A model generated the notes under the pieces. The model saw only the letters and a list, made by a program, of their open reading frames with translations. It searched no databases and was not told the origin of the DNA. Source: Eledone cirrhosa (taxonomy: Eukaryota). From it: a stretch of 64,000 nucleotides of DNA. Location: positions 14,756,001-14,820,000 of the forward strand of contig OZ024745.1 in NCBI GenBank assembly GCA_964016885.1, in the 5' to 3' direction. The position numbers and the translations under genes were made by a program. Positions 3,005-49,332 of the stretch are shown one piece after another; within the stretch, counting starts at the first letter, position 1; each line of letters begins with the position of its first letter.

Positions 3005-3007
<3 letters not shown>

Positions 3008-3344
3008 AAAAGGTATGACCCCGACTGTAGAGCTCAAGCAGTTTCGACGGCTATTTCTGGATTCAGAAATAGCCGTCGAAACGGCTTGAGCTCTGCCGTC
3101 GGGGTATACCTTTTCCTATTACTACCCTAAGTATTGAGTACTCTGGTGCGTTATGGTCCATCTGGTTCCTTACCACAATTCCTTCGTTATATATATATAT
3201 ATATATAACGAAGGAAATGTGGTAAGGAACCAGGTGGACCATAACGCACCAACGTACTCAATACTTAGGGTAGTAGAATGGGTAATAGGAAAAAGTATAC
3301 CCCGACGGCAGAGCTGAAGCCGTTTCGACGGCTATTTCTGAATC

Positions 3345-3413
<69 letters not shown>

Positions 3414-3625
3414 CGAAAGAAATGTGGTAAAAGAACCAGGTGGACCATAACGCACCAAAGTACTCAATACTTACGGTAGTAGAGTGGGTAATAGGAACGA
3501 GTAGGACCCCGACGGCTGAGCTCAAGCCGTTTCGACGGCTAATTCTGGACTCAGAATTAGTCCAGAATGAGTCCAGAATTAGCCGTCGAAACGGCTTGAG
3601 CTCAGCCGTCGGGGTCCTACTCGTT

Positions 3626-3630
<5 letters not shown>
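3005..3630. repeat. Cluster of (TA)n-embedded PLE-type terminal-repeat fragments forming fold-back palindromes
   Basis: Several copies of a ~170-bp unit in both orientations, palindromes centred near 3061 and near 3560. Carries an HHR 3' half, GAAAC GGC ttgagctct GCC GTC. Same family at 26545-26722 and 37255-37312. Confidence 0.8.
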
Positions 3631-5050: not shown

Positions 5051-5737
5051 AATAATGGAATAGAAAGGGCTAAAGCAATAGGCATTGATGAATTACGGAA
5101 ACAGAAACAAATTCAAGGTACGTCCAATATTCTATCATATATCTCAACACACAACCCAAGAAATGCGGAAGCTTACAACACTATTCACAATAACATCCCA
5201 CTACTAAAACAAAACCCAAGAATGAAAAAAGCCCTTGAAACACACAAAATAATCAAAAGCAAAAGACAACCAAAATCACTGAAAACATTACTCACCAATG
5301 CCAAATTACCTACCACAAACCCACAACCAAGTATCAAAAAATGTGGTCGCTCTAATTGTGGAACCTGCACTCACCTCATTGAAGGCAACACGTATACATT
5401 TAAATCAGGACAAAATTTTACTGTAAAAAATCACTTCACTTGCTCATCAAAAAATCTAATTTATGCCATTAAATGTAAAGGATGCAATGAAGATTATATA
5501 GGACAAACTAAACTCACACTCAGAAACAGAATGACAGTTCATCGCCAACAATTACGAGATCCAACCACGAGACAGATACCACTAAGTGCACATCTAGAGA
5601 TTTGCGCAAGTAATAAGACACCCAAATTCCAAGTCTTCCCATTTTACCTTTGAGCTAACAATACAACAGAACAAATGCGAATAAATAAGGAAAATATGTT
5701 TATTCAAAAATATAGACCAACATTAAATAAGGTTTAA
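5051..5737 (+). pseudogene. Penelope-like element ORF 3' remnant (RT thumb/linker, Cys pair, GIY-YIG endonuclease)
   Basis: THNP..RQPKSLKTLLT..CGRSNCGTC..FTCSSKNLIYAIKCKGCNEDYIGQT..LRNRMTVH. Premature TGA at 5651-5653; the frame continues RINKENMFIQKYRPTLNKV to TAA at 5735-5737. 5'-truncated at (TA)n. Confidence 0.93.
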
Positions 5738-6031
5738 TATACATTATGTCAACACCACAATATGACATACACACACACACAATATATATATATATATATT
5801 CTCTTCATCTTAACATGCTAACCATACTCCCACACACATAACACCCATACACACACATAACAACCCCCACACCTGCAACTCCTTCCCCATTTCTACTAAT
5901 AGAACCACTTTCCTACACACATATATATATATATATATATACACACACAAATATATATTCTCTCCATCTTAACATACTCGCACACACACAACTCCCTCCC
6001 CCATCTCTACTAATAGAATCATCTTCCAATA

Positions 6032-6088
<57 letters not shown>

Positions 6089-6780
6089 ACACACAAGCAC
6101 ACAAATAAACATACATATCTTCACTTCAATAGAAAATCTGAACTCTGACACCCCGGCGAGCTGGACATATTCACTGAACCAGAACAAATCTCCCAATCCC
6201 TTTTCTCTTGACCACTATCTCTCCATTGTCATAACATTCATTATAAAGACTACAGAATAGTTTTCCAAATAAGGGCGCAAAAATGTAATGAAAACTTGTT
6301 CACGTGACAGCCAAATTTCATTTATAACCAACCAAAAAAAAGCCTTCGTGAGCCTCCTTTTTTCAAGTAAAAAGAAATTCAAACACTCATATATGAAAAA
6401 ACAACCTGTGACAACCACCCCTCTCTTATTTGAAGAACTATTGTAACGCGAACTGGCGCGAAATTTATTATAATTATTGACAAACCAATCAAATTACTTC
6501 TCGAAAAACCTGGCATTTCGAGCCACTTTTTCCATATAAAACAAGTAACATTCAGAGACCAACCAGATGTGAGAAAAACCACAGACCCTCCATCTCAACT
6601 CACCTTTTGAAAAGCAGAAGAACTGCGAAACCGGTAAAGGAACCAAATAAATATATATATTTAAAAAAAAAATAAGACTCCAGTTGCATTTTCGATTTCA
6701 TCTCTTTTTCTTTATACTTTCACTCGTGTAGGACACCTCGGTTATTTTTTATTTTGTAAAAAAAACCTCACTTTCTAATA
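5738..6780 (+). mobile_element. 3' UTR / pseudo-LTR of the Penelope-like element
   Basis: Follows the ORF, has an internal ~150-bp duplication with CA/TA repeats, and ends in (TA)n. Parts of 6140-6780 recur at 48703-49332 (minus) and 42733-42930 (plus, partial). Confidence 0.8.
6603..6640 (+). ncRNA. Type I hammerhead ribozyme, U3-A8 core variant
   Basis: CCTT TTGAAAA GCAG aagaa CTGC GAAAC CG GTA AAGG: 4-bp stem I, 4-bp stem II, palindromic minimal stem III (ACCGGT). Confidence 0.75.
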
Positions 6781-24905: not shown

Positions 24906-24991
<86 letters not shown>

Positions 24992-25044
24992 CGTTTCTGA
25001 ATTTGTTTAGCTAGATTCTTTATCTGAAAACGTGTGTTGAAACC

Positions 25045-26543
<1,499 letters not shown>

Positions 26544-26544
26544 C

Positions 26545-26722
26545 GAAGGAAGTGTGGTAAGGAACCAGGTGGACCATAACTCACCAGAGTACTCGATACT
26601 TTGGGTAGTAGAGTGGATAATCGGAAAAGGGTCAGGACCCCGACGGCAGAGCTCAAGCCGTTTCGACGGCTATAGCCGTCGAAACAGCTTGAGCTGCCGT
26701 CGGGGTCCTGACTCTTTTCCTA
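26545..26722. repeat. Copy of the 3005-3630 family with a fold-back palindrome
   Basis: Centre gacggctatagccgtc near 26672. Confidence 0.8.
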
Positions 26723-29154
26723 TATATATATATATATATACACGAGGGTACGCAAAATATTATCTACACTTTCAGCAAAACATGTCTTTAAGTTTGTCAC
26801 AATGCTTTCTGCTCGTGCGGGCTTATAGTTGTTAGGATTTTAGTCATGTGATAGAAGTTTGAGCGTGATCGCACCAGTTTTCTTGCTGCTGTTACCTTGT
26901 AAACACAGCTGAAGTGGACTGCTTATTCTAGCAACCCGTTACTTGCCCTTGTCCACCTACAACTGCCCTTCTTCTAATCGTTAATCACGTGATAATTCTT
27001 CCATTCGAAATTATCGCGTGTAACGGATAACTCGGAAAAATTTGTCTTGTTTGAGACGTTTCCTGATGAGCTGGGACTTCTCACAGTACTGCGATTACTC
27101 AGCGAAACATCAACGTAAATAGGTAAAAAAATGTTCTTATCTTGTTTACTTTTCCCAAATACAATTATATATATATATAGATAGATAGATATAGATAGAT
27201 AGTCGACCCTCAATCAACGAAAATAAAGCATTCTTGAAGAAAAGACTCCCGACTATTGAAAGAACATCTGTTCTGCTCAGTTCGTTCTTGCCAACATGTT
27301 AAACATTGCAGTGATGACTGCAGATTTGAAGCAACAGAAAATGACGTATTCTTCACTCGCCTTGGAGGTCCAATGATACAATCGTTCCAACGAAACACAT
27401 GATGATGCTACGTTTAACGAATACAACATTAATTATATACACGATAGAAAAGATTACCTATTCGAGTGTATAGGGGAATAATCAACTGAAAAATATACAT
27501 GAAAGAGAATTCCCAGGAAATGTTTTGTTCATTAATTTATTTCTAGATGGCAAAGATTATCTTTTGTTCACTTTCGAAATACACAGAATTTAGGTGGCTA
27601 GTAATAAGTAAATTACTAAAAGGTTATTCAGAAAATAGATCTTATCAACATTTTAGCAAATAGAAAAGTCGGTATACTATTATTATCATAGTCAAGTAGT
27701 ACCTTTACGGATCCCAAAGACACATACAGAGCTAAAACGGAATAAGATCATGTCTATCCAAAATCGAGAAAATTTCACCAATGTATGGTAGCCCCTTTCC
27801 TATATTCAAATCTTAAGAAAGCGTTAATGTAGCTGCGTAAACCTCGTACTTCTAAAGCGATTCGACAATACAGCATCATGGCGAAATTTCTTCGAGAGTA
27901 ATCTCGGACCGGTCACTATATAGTAACCGAAGTTTGGCCGACTAAAACTGTGGGGAACCAAAGCCGACCCTCAATCACTCATATTGAAAACAAAATCCTT
28001 GGTTTGTTACATTTTCAAACAGTAGCAGAATGGAACTTGGAAATACAATTGTGTTTATATGTTTATAATACGGAGAATATGTTTTATAATTTATTAATTC
28101 ACTAAATATTTTCCCAGTGTTTGAAGGTGAACATTAATGCGTCAACGGATTGATAAAACTACATTTGTGATAGTGATGTTACCTAATGCGTATCCAAGAA
28201 ATGTCCTTCACGAAATGAATTAACCGTCAGATAAAATCGAAGCGATAATATAAACCCATGAATCTATATATTGCAGAAACTTCCACATCAATATCATAGA
28301 TATTGAACGTCTCAACACCAAACGAATACAAGTAGCTCAATGAAGTTTCTCTCTTAAATATCACTTAGTAATCATCGTTAATAGAGCGTCAACATTTACA
28401 AAAAGAAATAAAGTTCTGTGTATCTGGAAAGAACACATTTTACAGCACGTGACGATAACTAAAAATTACACCAAATGTACAACTTTATCTAAATGCTGTT
28501 AAGCGAACATATCTCTTTATATATCAGAAGAATTTTATATAGAAGTATGATAATTGAAAAAGCTTTACATCACCAAATTTAGATAGGCAAAGAAAGGGAT
28601 TTTTACAGCGCCCAAGAAACTAAAAATATAATCGGAACACCTAATCCACAAAGTGGGTGAAAATGTGTGCCTGGCAATGTACTAAGATCCAACAAACCCT
28701 TTTAAATACTTATCAAGAATCACCTAATATATTTCCATGTTTTTAGAAGAATTAGAGTTTTTCGAGATTTGCTCTCCTATTACACTCAGCACTGATTTAA
28801 CGTTCTTGCGAACCTTGACACAATCTCTTTAAACCACGCCTATGAGTGTGTCCGGCATGAGAACAACCTAGGTAACTTACTAATATACGCTTTACATCAG
28901 TCATTGCTAAGGTAAAATACTCCTTGCTAAATAGACCAATATAATGCCTGAACGTATGTGTATCACATACGAAACACACATACCTGAATACCAAACCTCT
29001 AAAAACACCTGTATATAAACATTTCTGTTGAACACATACCTAGTTAGTAATATCACCTTAAATCACATGCCTGTCTGCCAACAACTCTAGGTACTTGCAC
29101 ATCAACATCCTTACAGAACAGAATATCTTCCTGTATATCAACATATCAAAATAC

Positions 29155-30675: not shown

Positions 30676-30891
30676 TTAATCGGTATGGTGAGCAAATGGG
30701 GTCTCACGTGCTGGCCACCCCACAGCCCCGGCGGACAGGGTGGAGAAGGCGTTTCCCCGGAGGACGGCAAGGGAGATGCGCTGGAAGAGCCATTCCAACT
30801 CGCGTGGCTCACACCTGCGGCTGGCCAGCTCAGTGCCTATTAAGGTGAATAGGGAGGTAGCCCTAGGGCCAAGGACACCTACACCTTCAAT
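30676..30891 (-). mobile_element. CRE-clade LINE extreme 3' fragment
   Basis: IEGVGVLGPRATSLFTLIGTELASRRCEPRELEWLFQRISLAVLRGNAFSTL, containing the QRISxAxxRGNA signature. Confidence 0.8.
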
Positions 30892-30928
30892 ATCAAATAA
30901 TAAAACTTTGTAATACTAATGTACCTAA

Positions 30929-30972
<44 letters not shown>

Positions 30973-30973
<1 letters not shown>

Positions 30974-32522
30974 GAACCGGGACAAGTCGATCAGTCTGCA
31001 ACTCGGCACGTGGAGGGGCAGATCGATGCCCTCCGATGGCGTCGTCGGGCGCTGGACGGAGGGCCCGGTGAAGTTGCTCGGGGTCTGGTTCGGACCAGAC
31101 CTCCAGGTGGAGAAGAACTGGGGTGAGGTGACGAACAGGGTGTTTGCACTGACCCAGAAGTGGGCCGAGTGCAAACTGTCCCTGAAAGGTCGGGCGGAGG
31201 TGGCGAACACTTATATAGCGTCCGTCATCTACTACCGCCTGACCGTTGTGCCTTGCCCAAGGGAAACGCTCGCCAAAATGGAGCGCGCACTCTTCCAATT
31301 CCTTTGGAAGAAGCGGGCTCCTATGGTGAGGAGATCCATCTGCTGTCAACACCCTTCGAAAGGAGGGCTGGGATGCCGTGGCTAATGATACGTAAACACG
31401 CATTAAGGCTACGGCACCTTCAGGTATTCCTCTCTGGTCAACCGGTGTGGGCTCCGTTTGTGAGGCGAGCCTTTCCCAGACTCGTCTCACTCACCGAGCT
31501 GCAATCCTGGGTCAAACAAAGACCGAGAAAACTGGGCGCCTGGCACACCGAGTGTGCCCAGGCGCTCACGGCTCTCTGGCAGGCGGACCCGGCTGTCAGT
31601 GGAGAATCCACCTCGTCATTCTATAGAGGGCTGGTGGTTAGCAGGTGCGACGACGCCCTCGGAGAAGCCCTAGGCATGGAGGAAGACGAACTGGCCAACC
31701 TGTTCGGTAGGACATTCAGCCCGGGACCCATGGATAACTTCCAGAGGTCCCTGGCCTGGCAATGCTACAGAAGGGCTCTGCCCGTTCGAGAAACGCTCTA
31801 CAGACACGGGCGCCCGGGTAGGGACCCATCGAAAAAGATCTGTCCGAGATGCGTGTGCGACGAGGAAGCCGTTGCACACGCATTGGTACACTGCTCGGCC
31901 ATTGCCGATCTGTGGGGCTATGTCGAACAACTGCTGTCAAGGGTGGGACCGATCCAGTTGACCACCGAGTCTATTGTAACGATCAAGCCGCCTCCCCTCT
32001 TCAAAAATGAAGGAGAGGCGGTGTTTCTGTGCGTAATAGCCATAGCGAAAGAGGTTGTATGGTGGACGCGTCTGAAAGGACTGAGGTCAGACACCTTTCT
32101 CTCTGGCCAACAACTGGTCCGTTTCTTCCGATATCATTTCGGAAGAAGGATCAAGATGGAGAGAGAGGTGCTGCACCCCAGCCGTTTCTATGAAAGATGG
32201 GTGAAAGTGGCGAGAATGGCCCGTGTGAATGGGCCTTCACTCTACATCAGACTATAGGTGAGGAAGATGAAAGACCAAGGGAGCACTCCTTCTCTGTGCT
32301 CCTGAGGAGAAGGGTTGCACACTTTTTTCGGGTGTGTGTGTGCGACCCCCCAAGGCGCCTCCTCTCTATTGAGGACTTTGTTATAAATTTTATTTTTTGT
32401 TATATTTTATTTTATTTTTATATATTGTTATTGCCTCCTCCTTATTGAGGACGCCTTGTTTTGTAAACTCCCCCCATTGTACTTGTCCCACTTTTGATGC
32501 CCTGGTGGCAAATAAAAGAAAC
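30973..32522 (+). mobile_element. 5'-truncated Tx1/L1-group LINE (RT C-terminus, C-terminal Zn knuckle, 3' UTR)
   Basis: NRDKS..VKLLGVWFG..LSLKGRAEVANTYIAS..ALFQFLW..KGGLG, one frameshift near 31370, then CPRCVCDEEAVAHALVHC and stop at 32257. AATAAA near 32511. GC-rich; (ATCT)n on both flanks. Confidence 0.92.
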
Positions 32523-33983: not shown

Positions 33984-34034
<51 letters not shown>

Positions 34035-34156
34035 AATATAGACATAGAATATTCGAAAATATTCTGTATGTTTATAATAAACATTTTGAAGACCTAATCG
34101 CTATAGAATAGAATACGTCACGTATTACAATTAGATTCTCGATAAAAGCAAGGGAA

Positions 34157-34199
34157 GTAATCTACGCGTTTCATTCTTGTTAGAATTCATCAGGACTAC
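34157..34199 (-). ncRNA. Type I hammerhead, minus-strand copies (also 34467-34509, 34777-34819, 35087-35129)
   Basis: Reverse complement of the 35464-35506 motif. Confidence 0.9.
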
Positions 34200-35463
34200 A
34201 TATCCAGTGCTTTTATCGAGAATGACACAGCTAGAGACTTATAGAATACTTAGCTGTGTACAGGAACTGGTTTGAAAGAGCGGTTGCCGGTCCGGCAGAA
34301 ATTAGAAATTGGAATAAATGCTCTGAAATAGCGATATATATGTGAATATAGACATAGAATATTCGAAAATATTCTGTATGTTTATAATAAACATTTTGAA
34401 GACCTAATCGCTATAGAATAGAATACGTCACGTATTACAATTAGATTCTCGATAAAAGCAAGGGAAGTAATCTACGCGTTTCATTCTTGTTAGAATTCAT
34501 CAGGACTACATATCCAGTGCTTTTATCGAGAATGACACAGCTAGAGACTTATAGAATACTTAGCTGTGTACAGGAACTGGTTTGAAAGAGCGGTTGCCGG
34601 TCCGGCAGAAATTAGAAATTGGAATAAATGCTCTGAAATAGCGATATATATGTGAATATAGACATAGAATATTCGAAAATATTCTGTATGTTTATAATAA
34701 ACATTTTGAAGACCTAATCGCTATAGAATAGAATACGTCACGTATTACAATTAGATTCTCGATAAAAGCAAGGGAAGTAATCTACGCGTTTCATTCTTGT
34801 TAGAATTCATCAGGACTACATATCCAGTGCTTTTATCGAGAATGACACAGCTAGAGACTTATAGAATACTTAGCTGTGTACAGGAACTGGTTTGAAAGAG
34901 CGGTTGCCGGTCCGGCAGAAATTAGAAATTGGAATAAATGCTCTGAAATAGCGATATATATGTGAATATAGACATAGAATATTCGAAAATATTCTGTATG
35001 TTTATAATAAACATTTTGAAGACCTAATCGCTATAGAATAGAATACGTCACGTATTACAATTAGATTCTCGATAAAAGCAAGGGAAGTAATCTACGCGTT
35101 TCATTCTTGTTAGAATTCATCAGGACTACATATCCAGTGCTTTTATCGAGAATGACACAGCTAGAGACTTATAGAATACTTAGCTGTGTACAGGAACTGG
35201 TTTGAAAGAGCGGTTGCCGGTCCGGCAGAAATTAGAAATTGGAATAAATGCTCTGAAATAGCGATATATATGTGAATATAGACATAGAATATTCGAAAAT
35301 ATTCTGTATGTTTATATTCACATATATATCGCTATTTCAGAGCATTTATTCCAATTTCTAATTTCTGCCGGACCGGCAACCGCTCTTTCAAACCAGTTCC
35401 TGTACACAGCTAAGTATTCTATAAGTCTCTAGCTGTGTCATTCTCGATAAAAGCACTGGATAT

Positions 35464-35506
35464 GTAGTCCTGATGAATTCTAACAAGAATGAAACGCGTA
35501 GATTAC
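35464..35506 (+). ncRNA. Type I hammerhead, plus-strand copies (also starting at 35774, 36084, 36394, 36704, 37014)
   Basis: GTAGTC CTGATGA ATTCT aaca AGAAT GAAAC GC GTA GATTAC. Canonical core, palindromic stem III ACGCGT. Stem I is extended by attctcgataaaagca/tgcttttatcgagaat. Confidence 0.9.
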
Positions 35507-37209
35507 TTCCCTTGCTTTTATCGAGAATCTAATTGTAATACGTGACGTATTCTATTCTATAGCGATTAGGTCTTCAAAATGTTTATTATAAACATACAGA
35601 ATATTTTCGAATATTCTATGTCTATATTCACATATATATCGCTATTTCAGAGCATTTATTCCAATTTCTAATTTCTGCCGGACCGGCAACCGCTCTTTCA
35701 AACCAGTTCCTGTACACAGCTAAGTATTCTATAAGTCTCTAGCTGTGTCATTCTCGATAAAAGCACTGGATATGTAGTCCTGATGAATTCTAACAAGAAT
35801 GAAACGCGTAGATTACTTCCCTTGCTTTTATCGAGAATCTAATTGTAATACGTGACGTATTCTATTCTATAGCGATTAGGTCTTCAAAATGTTTATTATA
35901 AACATACAGAATATTTTCGAATATTCTATGTCTATATTCACATATATATCGCTATTTCAGAGCATTTATTCCAATTTCTAATTTCTGCCGGACCGGCAAC
36001 CGCTCTTTCAAACCAGTTCCTGTACACAGCTAAGTATTCTATAAGTCTCTAGCTGTGTCATTCTCGATAAAAGCACTGGATATGTAGTCCTGATGAATTC
36101 TAACAAGAATGAAACGCGTAGATTACTTCCCTTGCTTTTATCGAGAATCTAATTGTAATACGTGACGTATTCTATTCTATAGCGATTAGGTCTTCAAAAT
36201 GTTTATTATAAACATACAGAATATTTTCGAATATTCTATGTCTATATTCACATATATATCGCTATTTCAGAGCATTTATTCCAATTTCTAATTTCTGCCG
36301 GACCGGCAACCGCTCTTTCAAACCAGTTCCTGTACACAGCTAAGTATTCTATAAGTCTCTAGCTGTGTCATTCTCGATAAAAGCACTGGATATGTAGTCC
36401 TGATGAATTCTAACAAGAATGAAACGCGTAGATTACTTCCCTTGCTTTTATCGAGAATCTAATTGTAATACGTGACGTATTCTATTCTATAGCGATTAGG
36501 TCTTCAAAATGTTTATTATAAACATACAGAATATTTTCGAATATTCTATGTCTATATTCACATATATATCGCTATTTCAGAGCATTTATTCCAATTTCTA
36601 ATTTCTGCCGGACCGGCAACCGCTCTTTCAAACCAGTTCCTGTACACAGCTAAGTATTCTATAAGTCTCTAGCTGTGTCATTCTCGATAAAAGCACTGGA
36701 TATGTAGTCCTGATGAATTCTAACAAGAATGAAACGCGTAGATTACTTCCCTTGCTTTTATCGAGAATCTAATTGTAATACGTGACGTATTCTATTCTAT
36801 AGCGATTAGGTCTTCAAAATGTTTATTATAAACATACAGAATATTTTCGAATATTCTATGTCTATATTCACATATATATCGCTATTTCAGAGCATTTATT
36901 CCAATTTCTAATTTCTGCCGGACCGGCAACCGCTCTTTCAAACCAGTTCCTGTACACAGCTAAGTATTCTATAAGTCTCTAGCTGTGTCATTCTCGATAA
37001 AAGCACTGGATATGTAGTCCTGATGAATTCTAACAAGAATGAAACGCGTAGATTACTTCCCTTGCTTTTATCGAGAATCTAATTGTAATACGTGACGTAT
37101 TCTATTCTATAGCGATTAGGTCTTCAAAATGTTTATTATAAACATACAGAATATTTTCGAATATTCTATGTCTATATTCACATATATATCGCTATTTCAG
37201 AGCATTTAT

Positions 37210-37255
<46 letters not shown>

Positions 37256-37314
37256 GAACAAGTATGACCCCGACGGCAGAGCTCAAGCCGTTTCGACAGC
37301 TATTTCTGGACTCT

Positions 37315-37341
<27 letters not shown>

Positions 37342-37347
<6 letters not shown>

Positions 37348-37906
37348 GGAATTGGTGCTCTGAAATAGCGATATATATATGAATGTATATATAGCGTATT
37401 TTGCAATACACTGTATGCTTAATTAAAAGCATTTCGAAGACCTTATGCTATTGTTTTAGAGTAGTGACAGTCTCACTTACTTTACATTTTCAGCAAACAG
37501 GGGAGATAAAGCTGACAGAGCTCTTTTTGGTACTTATCAAAACTAAGTACTCCACCTGTTTGCTGAAAATCATGAATGGTTGATTCTTATAGAGCACCAT
37601 TTCAGAGCACCAATTCCAATTTTCAATTTCTGCTTGACCGGCAACCGCTCTGTATAATCAGTTCCTGATTATTACTAGAATTCTATAAGAATCAAACATT
37701 CATGATTTTCAGCAAACAGGTGGACTACTTAGCTTTGATAAGTACCAAAAAGTACGAAACAGCTTTGTCAGCTTTATCTCCCCTGTTTGCTGAAAATTTA
37801 AAGTAAGTGAGACTGTCACTACTCTAAAACAATAGCGTAAGGCCTTCGAAATGCTTTTAATTAAGCATACAGTGTATTGCAAAATACACTATATATACAT
37901 TCATAT
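37342..37906. repeat. Diverged relative of the 310-bp unit, arranged as an inverted repeat
   Basis: Arms about 37373-37591 and 37683-37906. Shares atttcagagca..ttccaattt..gaccggcaaccgctct and gaagacct..gctat with the 310-bp unit. Confidence 0.85.
37731..37773 (+). ncRNA. Type I hammerhead, U3-A8 core variant
   Basis: AGCT TTGATAA GTAC caaaaa GTAC GAAAC A gctt T GTC AGCT, with distal stem attttcagcaaacagg/cctgtttgctgaaaat. The mirror copy near 37510-37545 has lost GAAAC. Confidence 0.8.
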
Positions 37907-38039
37907 ATATATATATATATTATGAAGAAGAGAGACGGTCTTATGTGAATCGATAAGGAATACAAATCGTAGGGAGCTTTACGTCTGTTTACAAAAAACA
38001 GTCGGCGGATTATCTGATCAACCAACATTCATTAATTGA

Positions 38040-40945: not shown

Positions 40946-42732
40946 TAATATTTACAACTACGCTATATTATCTCGATCAGTTTGTACGAGTTCAAAGATC
41001 ACTTATCACGAGTTCTCTTCTTCGATGTGTGAATTGAACCACATTGAATTCAACCCCGGAACGTTTGCTCCTTAACGAAAAGCAGTATCTACCCAAGCTA
41101 CTCATGGTATTTGAAATCTAATACCATGCATCTAATACCTAAAAGCATATCCATTTGATTAATTAAATCCTTAATCACGATGGGAAATGACTTGAATTCC
41201 TATATAGAAATATCTGCATTGCTTTATCCATGGATAGTTCGAATTCACACTATAATTCCTAAATGAAATATGAATATTTTATTTCACCTTCAACAGAACT
41301 TTGTTGCTGGAGTGTGCGTGCGTGCGTGCGTGCGTGCGTGCGTCTCTGTGTGTCTGTGTTTAATAAAACGAAATATATCATAAATATTGAAAATGTTGCA
41401 GCTAATCACATTTCTATATCATTCCCCTTGCAACGAGTGAAAGGCTTACCATATCACATTCAATATAAATATTTCTACTTCTATATCGTGTTGGATATAG
41501 ATATAGAAATTTATTTATTCGTGGTGATAAACAGATATTCATAAATTTAACATTATCTTTCTGTTTCTGTTTTGAGTTCCATTTACCCATACATACTTCT
41601 TCCCTGTGACACCGTTTTATGATAAAATCATTTTATATATTTAACATAACTCATAATAGCTTCATCCGGAAACACGTAGCAATTCATTATGTATCTCGTG
41701 AGAATTGCTAGGTAAAACTATACTTAACAATAGTCATTATATTCAGTTCTATCTGTCACATAGCAATCGATCTGTTGATGTTCGTTTCATATCTTTACTT
41801 CTATTGTCAATTCTTTGTGTGTTTTTAATTAAAATTTCATCTATAAAAAAAAAATAGACACCAGAAACACTTCTTAAGAATTCAATAGATTTTATTAAGA
41901 TATTTTAAGCCCTTTTTGAGCCAATAGATTTCGTTAATAGATGTTATTAATATTATCTGATGGAATAGTTCCGCTAGAATCGAAAGTTATATATGAACGC
42001 AGCTTGATTTCATTTTCCGCTTTCGTGTTTACTTAATTGAAAAATCTCAATTGCTTACCTTCCCTTTGTATTCAATAAATGTTTAATGCTGAATACAGAA
42101 TATTAAATTTTAAATTACCCTCAGATAATATGAAGTATGTGATGTTTACGTTGTCTTCTTAATCCGAATATGAAAATATAAAGCTCTACTTTATATTAAA
42201 ATATAAAGCTTGTTAAACAAATATGTTGTCAGTATTTCCGTTAAATGACATCAAATATGATTATAGCTTGAAAGTTGGTTCGACATGCAGGCGAGAAAAT
42301 AGCGCATACTTACCAACACAGATTTCAACACATAAGATTCATTTATATTTGGATCTACTGAATCTATAATAGAAGAATATCAGAACGTTTAGCGTTTCAT
42401 ATTACACAGTTAACAAGTAACAAAAGGAAAACGATGAGATATTAGATTTCAAAAGTGACAAACTAGACATTGAGAAACGGTTATAACTGATGTTCATATG
42501 TAAGAGAAATGAACATTATGTTGCAGTTATCAGAAGATCTCAAATCCCTTCTGATACTTTTTATCCAATATGTAAAAAAAAATCACATATCACATTTCTC
42601 ACAAGCATCTTTCCTATTACCCCCCCCCCCCCCCAACCAGTAAATATAGGCAAAGTGCATTCAATATTAGTGGTAAAGCAAAGTAGATGAAAGAAAATAT
42701 AAAACCATTTACGATATGAATTATACATATGC

Positions 42733-42920
42733 ATAGACCCTCCATCTCAACTCTACTTTTGAAAGCTGAAGAACTGCGAAACCGCTAAAGAGACCAAATA
42801 AATATATATATATTTTTTTAAATAAAACTCCAGTTGCATTTTCAATTTCATCTTTTTTTCTTTATACTTTCACTCGTGTAGGACACCTAGGTTATTTTTC
42901 ATTTTGTAAAAAAATCTCAC

Positions 42921-42930
<10 letters not shown>
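42733..42930 (+). mobile_element. Solo fragment of the PLE pseudo-LTR with decayed hammerhead
   Basis: Matches 6583-6780 and ends in (TA)n. Confidence 0.85.
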
Positions 42931-47646: not shown

Positions 47647-48702
47647 ATAATCTATAATTAATAATGTATAATTAATAATGTATAATTAATAATGTATAAT
47701 TAATAATGTATAATAAGGCATGGGGAAGATTACACTATAATAAGGTATAAAAGTAAGGATAAGGTAAAATATAAAGGAGGATAAAAGGGAAAATAAGAAT
47801 AAAGATAAAAAAATATATATATAAAAAAAAGTATATAGAGAATATATAAAGAAGTATTTGAAGGGGAAAACCCAATGTAAAAAAACCGATTTTTTCAAAT
47901 AAAAATATAATTATGGGGGGAGAAAACGATACAATATACATGTATACAATGCACGCATATATACATGCATGCATGCACACACGTACGCACACACACATAC
48001 ATATGTCTGTGTGTGTGTGTGTGAGAGAGAAAAGGAGAATACACACACACACATATACACACACATACACACACACACAAAAACACCAACCTTGTAGAGG
48101 ACTGTTCCACCCTTAGGCTACCTATCTATCTGGGTTACGGGTTGGAGGGGAGGGGGGGAGCTGTAGTCAAGCATGTCTAGGTGGGGGTTGCGTAATATAT
48201 GTTACGTCTATGTGCTAGGTTTAAAATAGAAGAAGGAACTCAGGATTTTGTGTTGGCAAGAGGAGAAAATTTCCGATTTCCTGTTAAGCAGGTTCAGTTT
48301 AGAGTGTATTATGGCATGGCATTCCAGTAAACACAGGTCACAACTCCCGCTCTATATATATGCACATCTATACTCTCACGGCTGCCAGCTCGATTGCGGT
48401 GCAACGTCCATCGTTCATATCTTTTCACAAACAAACGAACAACCCAGCACGTACTCACTCGCACTCACACGCACGCACGCACTCACACACACGCACTCAC
48501 ACGCACGCATTCACATGCACGCATTTCATCCTTTATTTATCATTCTATCTCTTGATGAAGGACTAGTGTGAGAAATGTAAAGATGCTTTTCCTACTATAT
48601 GAAGTGTTAAACTAATATATTCCTTTATTATACTGTGATGTTTGCATTATTCTTTCCCTTTACTTTTCGTACACACAGGGCACACAGCTATATATATATA
48701 TA

Positions 48703-49332
48703 TTAGAAAGTGAGGTTTTTTTTACAAAATGAAAATTAACCGAGGTGTCCTACACGAGTGAAAGTATAAAGAAAAAAAGATGAAATAGAAAATGCAACTG
48801 GAGTCTTATTAAAAAAAATATATATATATTTATTTGGTTCCTTTACCGGTTTTGCAGTTCTTCTGCTTTTCTAAAGTAGAGTTGAGATGGAGGGTCTGTG
48901 GTTTTTCTCACATCTGGTTGGTCTTTGAATGTTACTTGTTTTATATGTAAAAAGTGGCTCGAAACGCCAGGTTTTTAGAGAAGTAATTTGATTGGTTGGT
49001 CAATAATTATAATAAATTTCGCACCAGTTCGCGTTACAAAGTTCTTAAAACAGGGGGCGGGGCTCAGGTTGTTTTTTTCATATATGAGTGTTTGAATTTC
49101 TTTTTACTTAAAAAAAGGGGCTCACGAAGGCTTTTTTTAAATAAACGTAATTTGATTGGTTATAAATGAAATTATGGCTGTCACGTGAACACGTTTTCAT
49201 TAAATTTCGCGCCCGTATTTGGAAATTTATTCTGTAGTCCTTTTAGAGAATTTTATGACAAGCAAAAGATAATGGTCAAGAGAAATGGGATGGGAGAATT
49301 GTTCTGGTTCAGTGAATATGGTTAGTTCGCCC
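48703..49332 (-). mobile_element. Solo copy of the PLE pseudo-LTR
   Basis: Diverged reverse complement of about 6150-6780, with a decayed HHR core. 3' end in (TA)n. Confidence 0.9.

Follow-up and report, generated by a model that had tools for sequence, protein, structure and literature searches.

A non-coding insert of ~570 bases, located in a (TA)n tract of a 64,000-nucleotide stretch of Eledone cirrhosa DNA (referred to as the window), is in our judgement probably a non-LTR retrozyme for which a Penelope-like element (PLE) provides the copying enzyme, with expression, cleavage, circles and mobilisation being predicted. The insert (37342-37912) represents a single insertion and consists of two outward-pointing arms, back-to-back copies of a repeat unit amounting to 1.8 units (0.8 unit in the left and one unit in the right arm). 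It neighbours an array of 310-bp units, of which it will be referred to as the sister. The 310 and sister repeats are likely to be small parasitic retroelements (retrozymes) that a Penelope-like enzyme copies, beginning at two fixed points, because the ends of both elements look like those of Penelope-like retrotransposons.

An earlier sequence-only reading had marked the element as one stretch, 37342 to 37906. The stretch was confirmed, but its right end lies at ~37912, where it merges with (TA)n, and it is composed of two inverted arms (Table 1). The sister unit has a length of 318 bp, as derived from the tandem joint 37912 -> 37599 with CGCT in between. Over 231 nt the two arms differ by 7 substitutions and an 8-nt deletion. 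According to the arm comparison the left arm is without G12-A15.1 and half of helix II and thus cannot form a ribozyme; a complete ribozyme is present in the right arm only, because in the left arm the 3′ side of helix II and G12-C15.2 are lost to the deletion. With regard to a target-site duplication, both ends of the insert blend into (TA)n. The surroundings are AT-rich and microsatellite-rich throughout the window (GC = 0.33 over 36001-38000), and none of the 60 ORFs of at least 90 aa overlaps the sister locus or any part of 34024-37920. Short ATG frames in the sister and 310 units were inspected by eye and dropped, being unlike each other, and Rfam microRNA-family matches at ~37177-37383 were rejected as they derive from AT repeats and inverted tails.

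Table 1: Features of the sister insertion and the neighbouring 310-bp element (positions in the window).
Feature	Position	Strand	Remarks
310-bp family, inverted arm, 4.2 identical units	34024..35316	-	arm stops at the unit's AT run
310-bp family, main arm, 6.1 identical units	35313..37215	+	ends after 26-nt tail
61-bp spacer between the 310 and sister insertions	37254..37314	+	fragment of an unrelated third family with TA flanks
(TA)n target tract, left flank of sister insertion	37315..37341	no strand	(TA)14 begins at 37315
Sister left arm, inverted 5′-truncated copy, ~0.8 unit	37342..37593	-	crosses the unit's (TA) run, stops after the tail
Sister tail, 29 nt (39 nt including the unit's AT run)	37342..37370	-	at the left end only
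Left-arm hammerhead domain, broken	37486..37570	-	8-nt deletion: helix II 3′ side and G12-C15.2
Head-to-head arm joint	37594..37598	no strand	5 filler bases, short duplicate of 37604-37612
Sister right arm, one unit minus first 4 nt	37599..37912	+	terminates in the unit's own AT run
Best-conserved inter-family region, 58/69 columns	37599..37667	+	tail, predicted AGAGC/GCUCU helix, predicted 4-5 bp hairpin, 16-nt block
Type I hammerhead closed by 16-bp stem	37705..37797	+	core 37735-37741 (U3-A8) and 37756-37759
Sister helix II	37742-37755	+	loop CAAAAA
Sister helix III	37759-37768	+	predicted cut after C37769
8-bp hairpin, 13-22 nt upstream of the unit's AT run	37871..37890	+	loop GCAA, UUCG in the 310 unit
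(TA)n target tract, right flank of sister insertion	37913..37920	no strand	sequence

The 310 element shows the plan of the sister in mirror order, and (TA)n flanks are found in both. Its arms are joined via a common TATA (35313-35316) and are 100% complementary over 1293 nt; a tail of 26 nt (37190-37215; 34 nt including the AT run) is present at one end only. Perfect complementarity of this kind might suggest that the inverted arrangement is an artefact of assembly or of fold-back reads. We consider this extremely improbable, as the sister arms differ by 7 substitutions and a deletion, the arm ends differ by the tail, each flank is unique, and independent public contigs also contain inversion joints. 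Judging from the sequences, the sister insertion is the older of the two, because its arms have diverged whereas the 310 copies are still identical. The 310 array contains consecutive units with complete ribozymes, by which Li et al. define activity (Li, Clavereau and Pollet 2026, preprint 10.64898/2026.07.22.740005). The sister copy itself, with no tandem unit pair, one intact ribozyme and inverted arms, lies outside this definition (two consecutive units with complete ribozymes), which applies to active copies and not to a family. Having a single intact ribozyme and lacking a tandem, this copy probably represents a dead end. The third family, a piece of which forms the spacer between both insertions, has seven other matches within the window.

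Alignment of the sister and 310 units from end to end yielded 68% identity (218/320 columns), and the local alignment score was 192 compared to a shuffle maximum of 40. Because the units align over their entire length, they are best taken as two descendants of one element and not as two elements sharing a block. The shared block that had been noticed before, GACCGGCAACCGCTCT, is indeed present, once in the sister (37636-37651) and in ten of the 310-bp units; a search tolerating up to 3 mismatches gave 11 matches in the window, all of them exact, with a chance expectation of 0.07. The flanking block ATTTCAGAGCA..TTCCAATTT was likewise found in the sister. The likeness is not limited to these blocks but extends over the whole unit: 58/69 columns are identical in tail and block, 21/38 in the linker, 59/96 in the ribozyme domain and 80/117 in the 3′ region. 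The ribozyme was previously described as fully rewritten, which overstated the difference. Since the unit is homologous over its whole length, the ribozyme is rather half rewritten, with 61% identity in the domain, 8/16 distal pairs unchanged and a gap of 4 nt in helix III as the sole gap of the domain alignment.

The right arm carries a type I hammerhead with the U3-A8 core that had been read from it (37735/37740), compared to C3-G8 in the 310 unit. Besides U3-A8, the sister contains the core positions G12-A14, A15.1-U16.1 and H17, the GUC triplet, G10.1-C11.1 and three helices, helix I consisting of 4 pairs followed by 2 U-U. The 16-bp distal stem keeps its pairing as proposed (16/16 Watson-Crick pairs in sister and 310 units). 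Pairing is incomplete in helix I, in which 2/6 pairs are U-U in the sister. Helix III is longer in the sister than the 2-bp palindromic helix III of the 310 unit. A hammerhead with such a 2-bp palindromic helix III would need a dimer for cleavage. A strict hammerhead descriptor yielded 12 matches in the window, ten in the 310 array, one in the sister and one at 6607, and none in 100 locally shuffled windows or 5000 shuffles of the sister unit. Rfam Hammerhead_HH9 (RF02275) aligned to 37717-37792 with 24.2 bits (E 0.00025) and to the 310 unit with 23.0 bits, both below the gathering score of 52; at gathering level, no Rfam hammerhead match was obtained in the window. Loop 2 of the sister (CAAAAA) and the helix I bulge UAC, letters of the tertiary contact, are identical to the HH9 consensus. 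By analogy with known retrozymes, transcripts of both families would be expected to cleave themselves and to give rise to circular RNA. TTTTCAG at 37706-37712 and AAAGTAAGT at 37800-37808, which we take to be splice-acceptor-like and donor-like, respectively, bracket the sister ribozyme domain; these motifs are without counterpart in the 310 unit. For Drosophila Penelope, an intron has been described whose end coincides with helix I.

Comparing sister and 310 units, 15 of the 46 modelled pairs (8 helices) are changed on both sides, whereas slid controls with partners shifted by 1-3 columns gave at most one two-sided change. The changes concern 8/16 pairs of the distal stem, 2/6 of helix I, 2/4 of helix II, the 3-8 pair and 2/8 of the hairpin 37871-37890, a helix absent from the sequence-only reading. 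As this count is based on three aligned rows with a structure drawn from the same sequences, it is a description more than a formal test. Nevertheless, the claim that structure is conserved under selection gains support from the excess over the slid controls, from the agreement of core and tertiary-contact letters with HH9 and from double changes within the family. On the basis of three aligned sequences and unphased read tables, the pattern argues for selection on the RNA, which would have kept helices, core and tertiary-contact letters while paired letters drifted. DNA-level template switching, which can create and repair perfect stems (as described in PMC8794818), might alternatively have perfected the inverted repeats of a satellite without selected RNA function. 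The distal stem, perfect in both units and holding 8/15 of the double changes, would fit such a process, and four adjacent changed pairs (37717-37720) could represent one event. This explanation is nonetheless improbable, as it accounts neither for the swap from C3-G8 to U3-A8 across a 4-nt loop, nor for the unchanged unpaired core and the kept loop 2, bulge and helix lengths, nor for the PLE-type ends. The sister/310 pair provides a natural covariation set for a canonical hammerhead.

Sequencing reads were used to characterize the sister family. Four of 14 runs (X1, X4, X6 and X12) mapped on the right arm at 80% likeness make up the family data; X7-X9, with small shares, were left out and contig depths were not taken as copy numbers. 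The right arm was matched by 3797 (X1), 37 (X4) and 14 (X6) contig pieces and by 6736 reads of X12. X1, X4 and X6 carry three organism labels, indicating a diverse multi-copy family in three organisms. The direct tandem joint was detected in 8 contigs of X1, 1 contig of X4 and 25 reads of X12 (11 starts), and six inversion joints were observed at different places, each in single contigs of X1. Both partners of a helix II pair vary at similar rates (T37743C in 264/1032 reads, A37754G in 261/976) and show equal depths within single contigs of X4 and of X6; the same variation on both sides is seen for a pair of the hairpin 37871-37890 (G37874A in 365/1092 reads, C37887T in 405/1154). The read variants are unphased and travel in subfamily blocks, and the latter two changes, which travel with three others (32-38%), mark one subfamily. 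An AG insertion after 37760 (494/959) together with T37765C (816/958) converts helix III into a 12-nt palindrome. Among single contigs of X4, one relative has a sister-like helix I with CTGA (C3) behind it, and another carries two further double changes in helix II. No core variants were present among the variant rows listed (n = 40).

The 310 family is represented by one 340-nt contig each in X4 and X6, in keeping with a 310-bp tandem of very high uniformity. At position 37652, letters of the 310 family account for 97 of a depth of 357,997 in X1 and for 1681/2922 reads in X12, a run with an identical species label; possible explanations of this contrast are library bias, a burst specific to one population or an RNA library. 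Position 37617 is C in both sister arms compared to T in 99% of the X1 contig depth, in keeping with both arms deriving from a single template molecule. The piles that molecule ends form in X12 were considered as start sites but rejected, as six of the seven listed are located on AATT (37625, 37679/37682, 37798, 37859/37862) and the seventh lies 4 nt from AATT; moreover, 86% of the reads continue into unlike sequence. Since the ends sit on restriction sites, the piles are a library artefact.

The ends of the insertions are the evidence for a Penelope-like mode of copying. In each element one arm stops at the unit's own AT run, whereas the other continues 26-29 nt further into the next unit, a two-end pattern established at two loci (sister and 310). 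Both elements possess (TA)n flanks, a tail confined to one end and an inverted 5′-truncated arm that is joined via its 5′ end. Partial tandems, an inverted 5′-truncated copy, a one-end tail of 30-40 bp and a (TA)n bias, the latter linked to the CX2-5CxxC linker, have been described for PLE insertions (Craig et al. 2021, PMC8557442). The tails observed here amount to 29 nt in the sister (39 nt with the AT run) and 26 nt in the 310 array (34 nt), and reach the published length only with the AT run. Ribozyme and end are 133-143 nt apart in the sister, compared to 131-139 nt in the 310 unit. [quoted passage not shown] 2024, PMC11167929). By analogy, the unit's AT run would be the first RT start site and the end of the tail the second. 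The flanking block would then represent the tail, with the 16-mer 13-28 nt past the second start, at the place expected of a binding site. The two sister families, although diverged, terminate at two homologous positions common to both, and their most similar sequence surrounds those ends.

This bears on the earlier proposal that the shared block may be a cis-signal for the RT, which is made plausible by the position of the blocks, a PLE-type tail plus the 30 nt behind it, but not by the 16-mer. An exact run of 16 nt was reached in 17-20% of match-pattern permutations (p 0.17-0.20), and C37645 within the block is T in 539/2754 X12 reads (20%) and in 32% of the X1 contig depth; this position is unpaired in the predicted local fold. 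Being not beyond background homology (p ~0.2) and polymorphic within the family, the 16-mer was rejected as a stand-alone signal. The 69-column region gave p 0.004 in Fisher's test and a borderline p 0.05 once the choice of window was allowed for. In both units, tail and block can fold alike, the AGAGC of the tail being predicted to pair with the last part of the block and to enclose a small hairpin. The predicted fold is weak (z 0.20 and -1.90) and was not kept in the circular fold of the sister; its 9 pairs show just one one-sided change between the units. Metagenome scans with two block patterns yielded 0 matches each. We regard the shared blocks as a plausible RT signal on account of their position, because they coincide with the tail and the following 30 nt, and 37599-37667 as a candidate RT-binding module. 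The other function suggested for the block, a signal for the RNA ligase closing the circle, would be compatible with its identity in both units. The block is found, though, ~120 nt from the cleavage/ligation site and right beside the insertion ends, and axolotl and mussel retrozyme monomers were circularised by generic RtcB in vitro (PMC7229834), making a ligase signal highly unlikely.

Penelope-like sequences are also present elsewhere in the window. A PLE fragment at 5054-6778 (+) encodes a GIY-YIG domain and a CX4CxxC linker and is 72% identical to the full-length 772-aa RT protein P0001. Among 26 matches of a PLE protein fragment of the window two are named, both from Argonauta hians with 57% identity, so that, as far as a mobile element can tell, the host is probably an octopod. 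Copies of its 3′ end were found at ~48700-49331 (-) and 42732-42927 (+). Behind the fragment, a minimal hammerhead-like motif with U3-A8 (core 6607) is located 142 nt before a (TA)n end common to the three copies; the core is damaged in the other two copies, and no Rfam hammerhead match was obtained for the motif at 6607. The ORF and the 3′ end at 5054-6778 are likely to belong to one element. A second PLE fragment at 24990-26443 (-) shows a weak GIY-YIG match (E 0.0015), a CX4CxxC linker, an inverted 70-bp arm at its 5′ end, a ~57-nt tail and (TA)n on both sides. Comparison of the sister or 310 unit with the two PLE fragments gave no likeness beyond shuffles (0/16 comparisons), and no autonomous partner was found among them. 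A LINE 3′ fragment, GC-rich and with a zf-RVT match below the curated cut-off (E 4.8e-05), is located at 30867-32257 (+).

The unit could conceivably be the pseudo-LTR of an autonomous PLE and the locus a short 5′-truncated insertion of that element. The locus holds just 1.8 units, inverted 5′-truncated copies with tails are typical of autonomous PLEs, the spacing from ribozyme to end matches that behind the PLE fragment of the window, and opposite-strand hammerhead pairs 100-700 bp apart are described for Schistosoma PLEs in PMC4209133. We nevertheless consider this unlikely, as direct unit-to-unit joints without an intervening ORF occur in three runs, the 310 sister forms arrays of 4.2 and 6.1 units, and no ORF of at least 90 aa, and thus no RT/GIY-YIG ORF, exists at the locus. 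In addition, the ribozyme is canonical with tertiary loops and not of the minimal kind that PMC4209133 describes as typical of metazoan PLEs.

The adjacent insertions had further been taken to indicate a shared target preference. Both elements are indeed inserted in (TA)n, but this is generic, as 36 (TA)10+ tracts and three unrelated TA-flanked families are present in the window. From one locus, no preference beyond general (TA)n use can be shown. The third family mentioned above, non-coding and TA-flanked (3006-3627, 26544-26723, 37254-37314), shows inverted arm pairs and a ~70-nt tail, with copies clustered at 3.0-3.6 kb. No hammerhead core was found in these three copies, and no sequence kinship with the sister and 310 units beyond shuffles.

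Returning to copying of a retrozyme by a PLE enzyme, the following route can be proposed. Tandem copies of the unit exist in genomic DNA. Transcripts of these copies would be cut by their own hammerhead and closed to unit circles by ligation, as shown for retrozymes of coral, mussel and axolotl. The conserved module around the tail would be bound by the RT/GIY-YIG protein of a PLE (probably Neptune or Nematis type), which would cut both (TA)n strands and extend both ends on the same RNA from two starts 26-39 nt apart; we infer this extension from where the arms end in both elements and from what the anole Poseidon enzyme does in vitro. The two cDNAs would then be joined at their 5′-truncated ends via microhomology or short templated filler, a possible route to the joints observed. 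Selection on the RNA would account for the helices, core and tertiary-contact letters being kept while paired letters drift.

A more specific version is tentative and rather less probable than its alternatives taken together, namely that the sisters record the two-start mechanism of PLEs in vivo, with a PLE dimer acting on both (TA)n strands and one circular template. Each strand would roll round the circle, for 4.2 and 6.1 turns in the 310 array, and a conserved module composed of tetraloop hairpin, AT run, tail and small hairpin would load the RT and be kept while the adjacent ribozyme turns over. If true, this would represent direct insertion-signature evidence for PLE mobilisation of retrozymes, and a portable RNA address for writing tandem copies into microsatellites.

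Metazoan non-LTR retrozymes have been described by Cervera and de la Peña (2020, PMC7229834). As reported there, their units measure 150-450 bp, are low in GC, contain a single type I hammerhead and no ORF, and occur in tandem, all of which applies here. The presence of two related families in one genome also resembles the axolotl retrozymes of 330 and 350 bp, with weaker and stronger helix III (PMC7229834). Unlike the retrozymes described in that paper, the sister, known from its sequence alone, has a U3-A8 core, a 16-bp closing stem and (TA)n targeting. The main texts of PMC7229834 and of the preprint 10.64898/2026.07.22.740005 make no mention of inverted arms and tails, though the supplements may differ. 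The preprint by Li et al. proposes the same origin and mobiliser, retrozymes being non-autonomous PLE derivatives. Its evidence consists of co-occurrence and pLTR homology, mostly in vertebrates, compared to an insertion signature without a partner pLTR found here; the word "octopus" is absent from its main text (10.64898/2026.07.22.740005), and the supplements may bear on this point. For giant squid, the sections of PMC6962438 drawn on here count 235 hammerhead matches and leave the families undescribed. No description of an octopod retrozyme family was found in the literature searched, the supplements of which may list one.

U3-A8 core variants with the same covariation have been reported (Cervera and de la Peña 2014, PMC4209133; Perreault et al. 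2011, PMC3088659), comprising ~1,300 motifs in Schistosoma and reported as active in vitro. Unlike the variants described in these papers, the sister has this core in a canonical-type ribozyme with tertiary loops and beside a C3-G8 sister family. EN+ PLEs of the Neptune/Nematis type share with our elements the partial tandem and inverted 5′-truncated copy, the one-end tail, the (TA)n bias and a hammerhead upstream of the start sites (PMC8557442, PMC11167929), whereas the sister and 310 elements are without ORF. One start site of the latter would be at an internal AT run that could base-pair with the target, unlike the start sites of the anole enzyme, which share no homology with the cut DNA, and the predicted distance from cut to start is ~135 nt compared to 85-92 nt in those PLEs (PMC11167929). 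The hypothesis that PLEs mobilise retrozymes, so far based on co-occurrence and pLTR homology in the papers considered, thereby gains specific tests in the ends of copies genome-wide and the 100 nt that a PLE protein would bind. The non-LTR retrozyme class, the U3-A8 core and the PLE end signature are already known and the locus contributes their combination, the insertion signature common to two diverged sisters being the part worth following.
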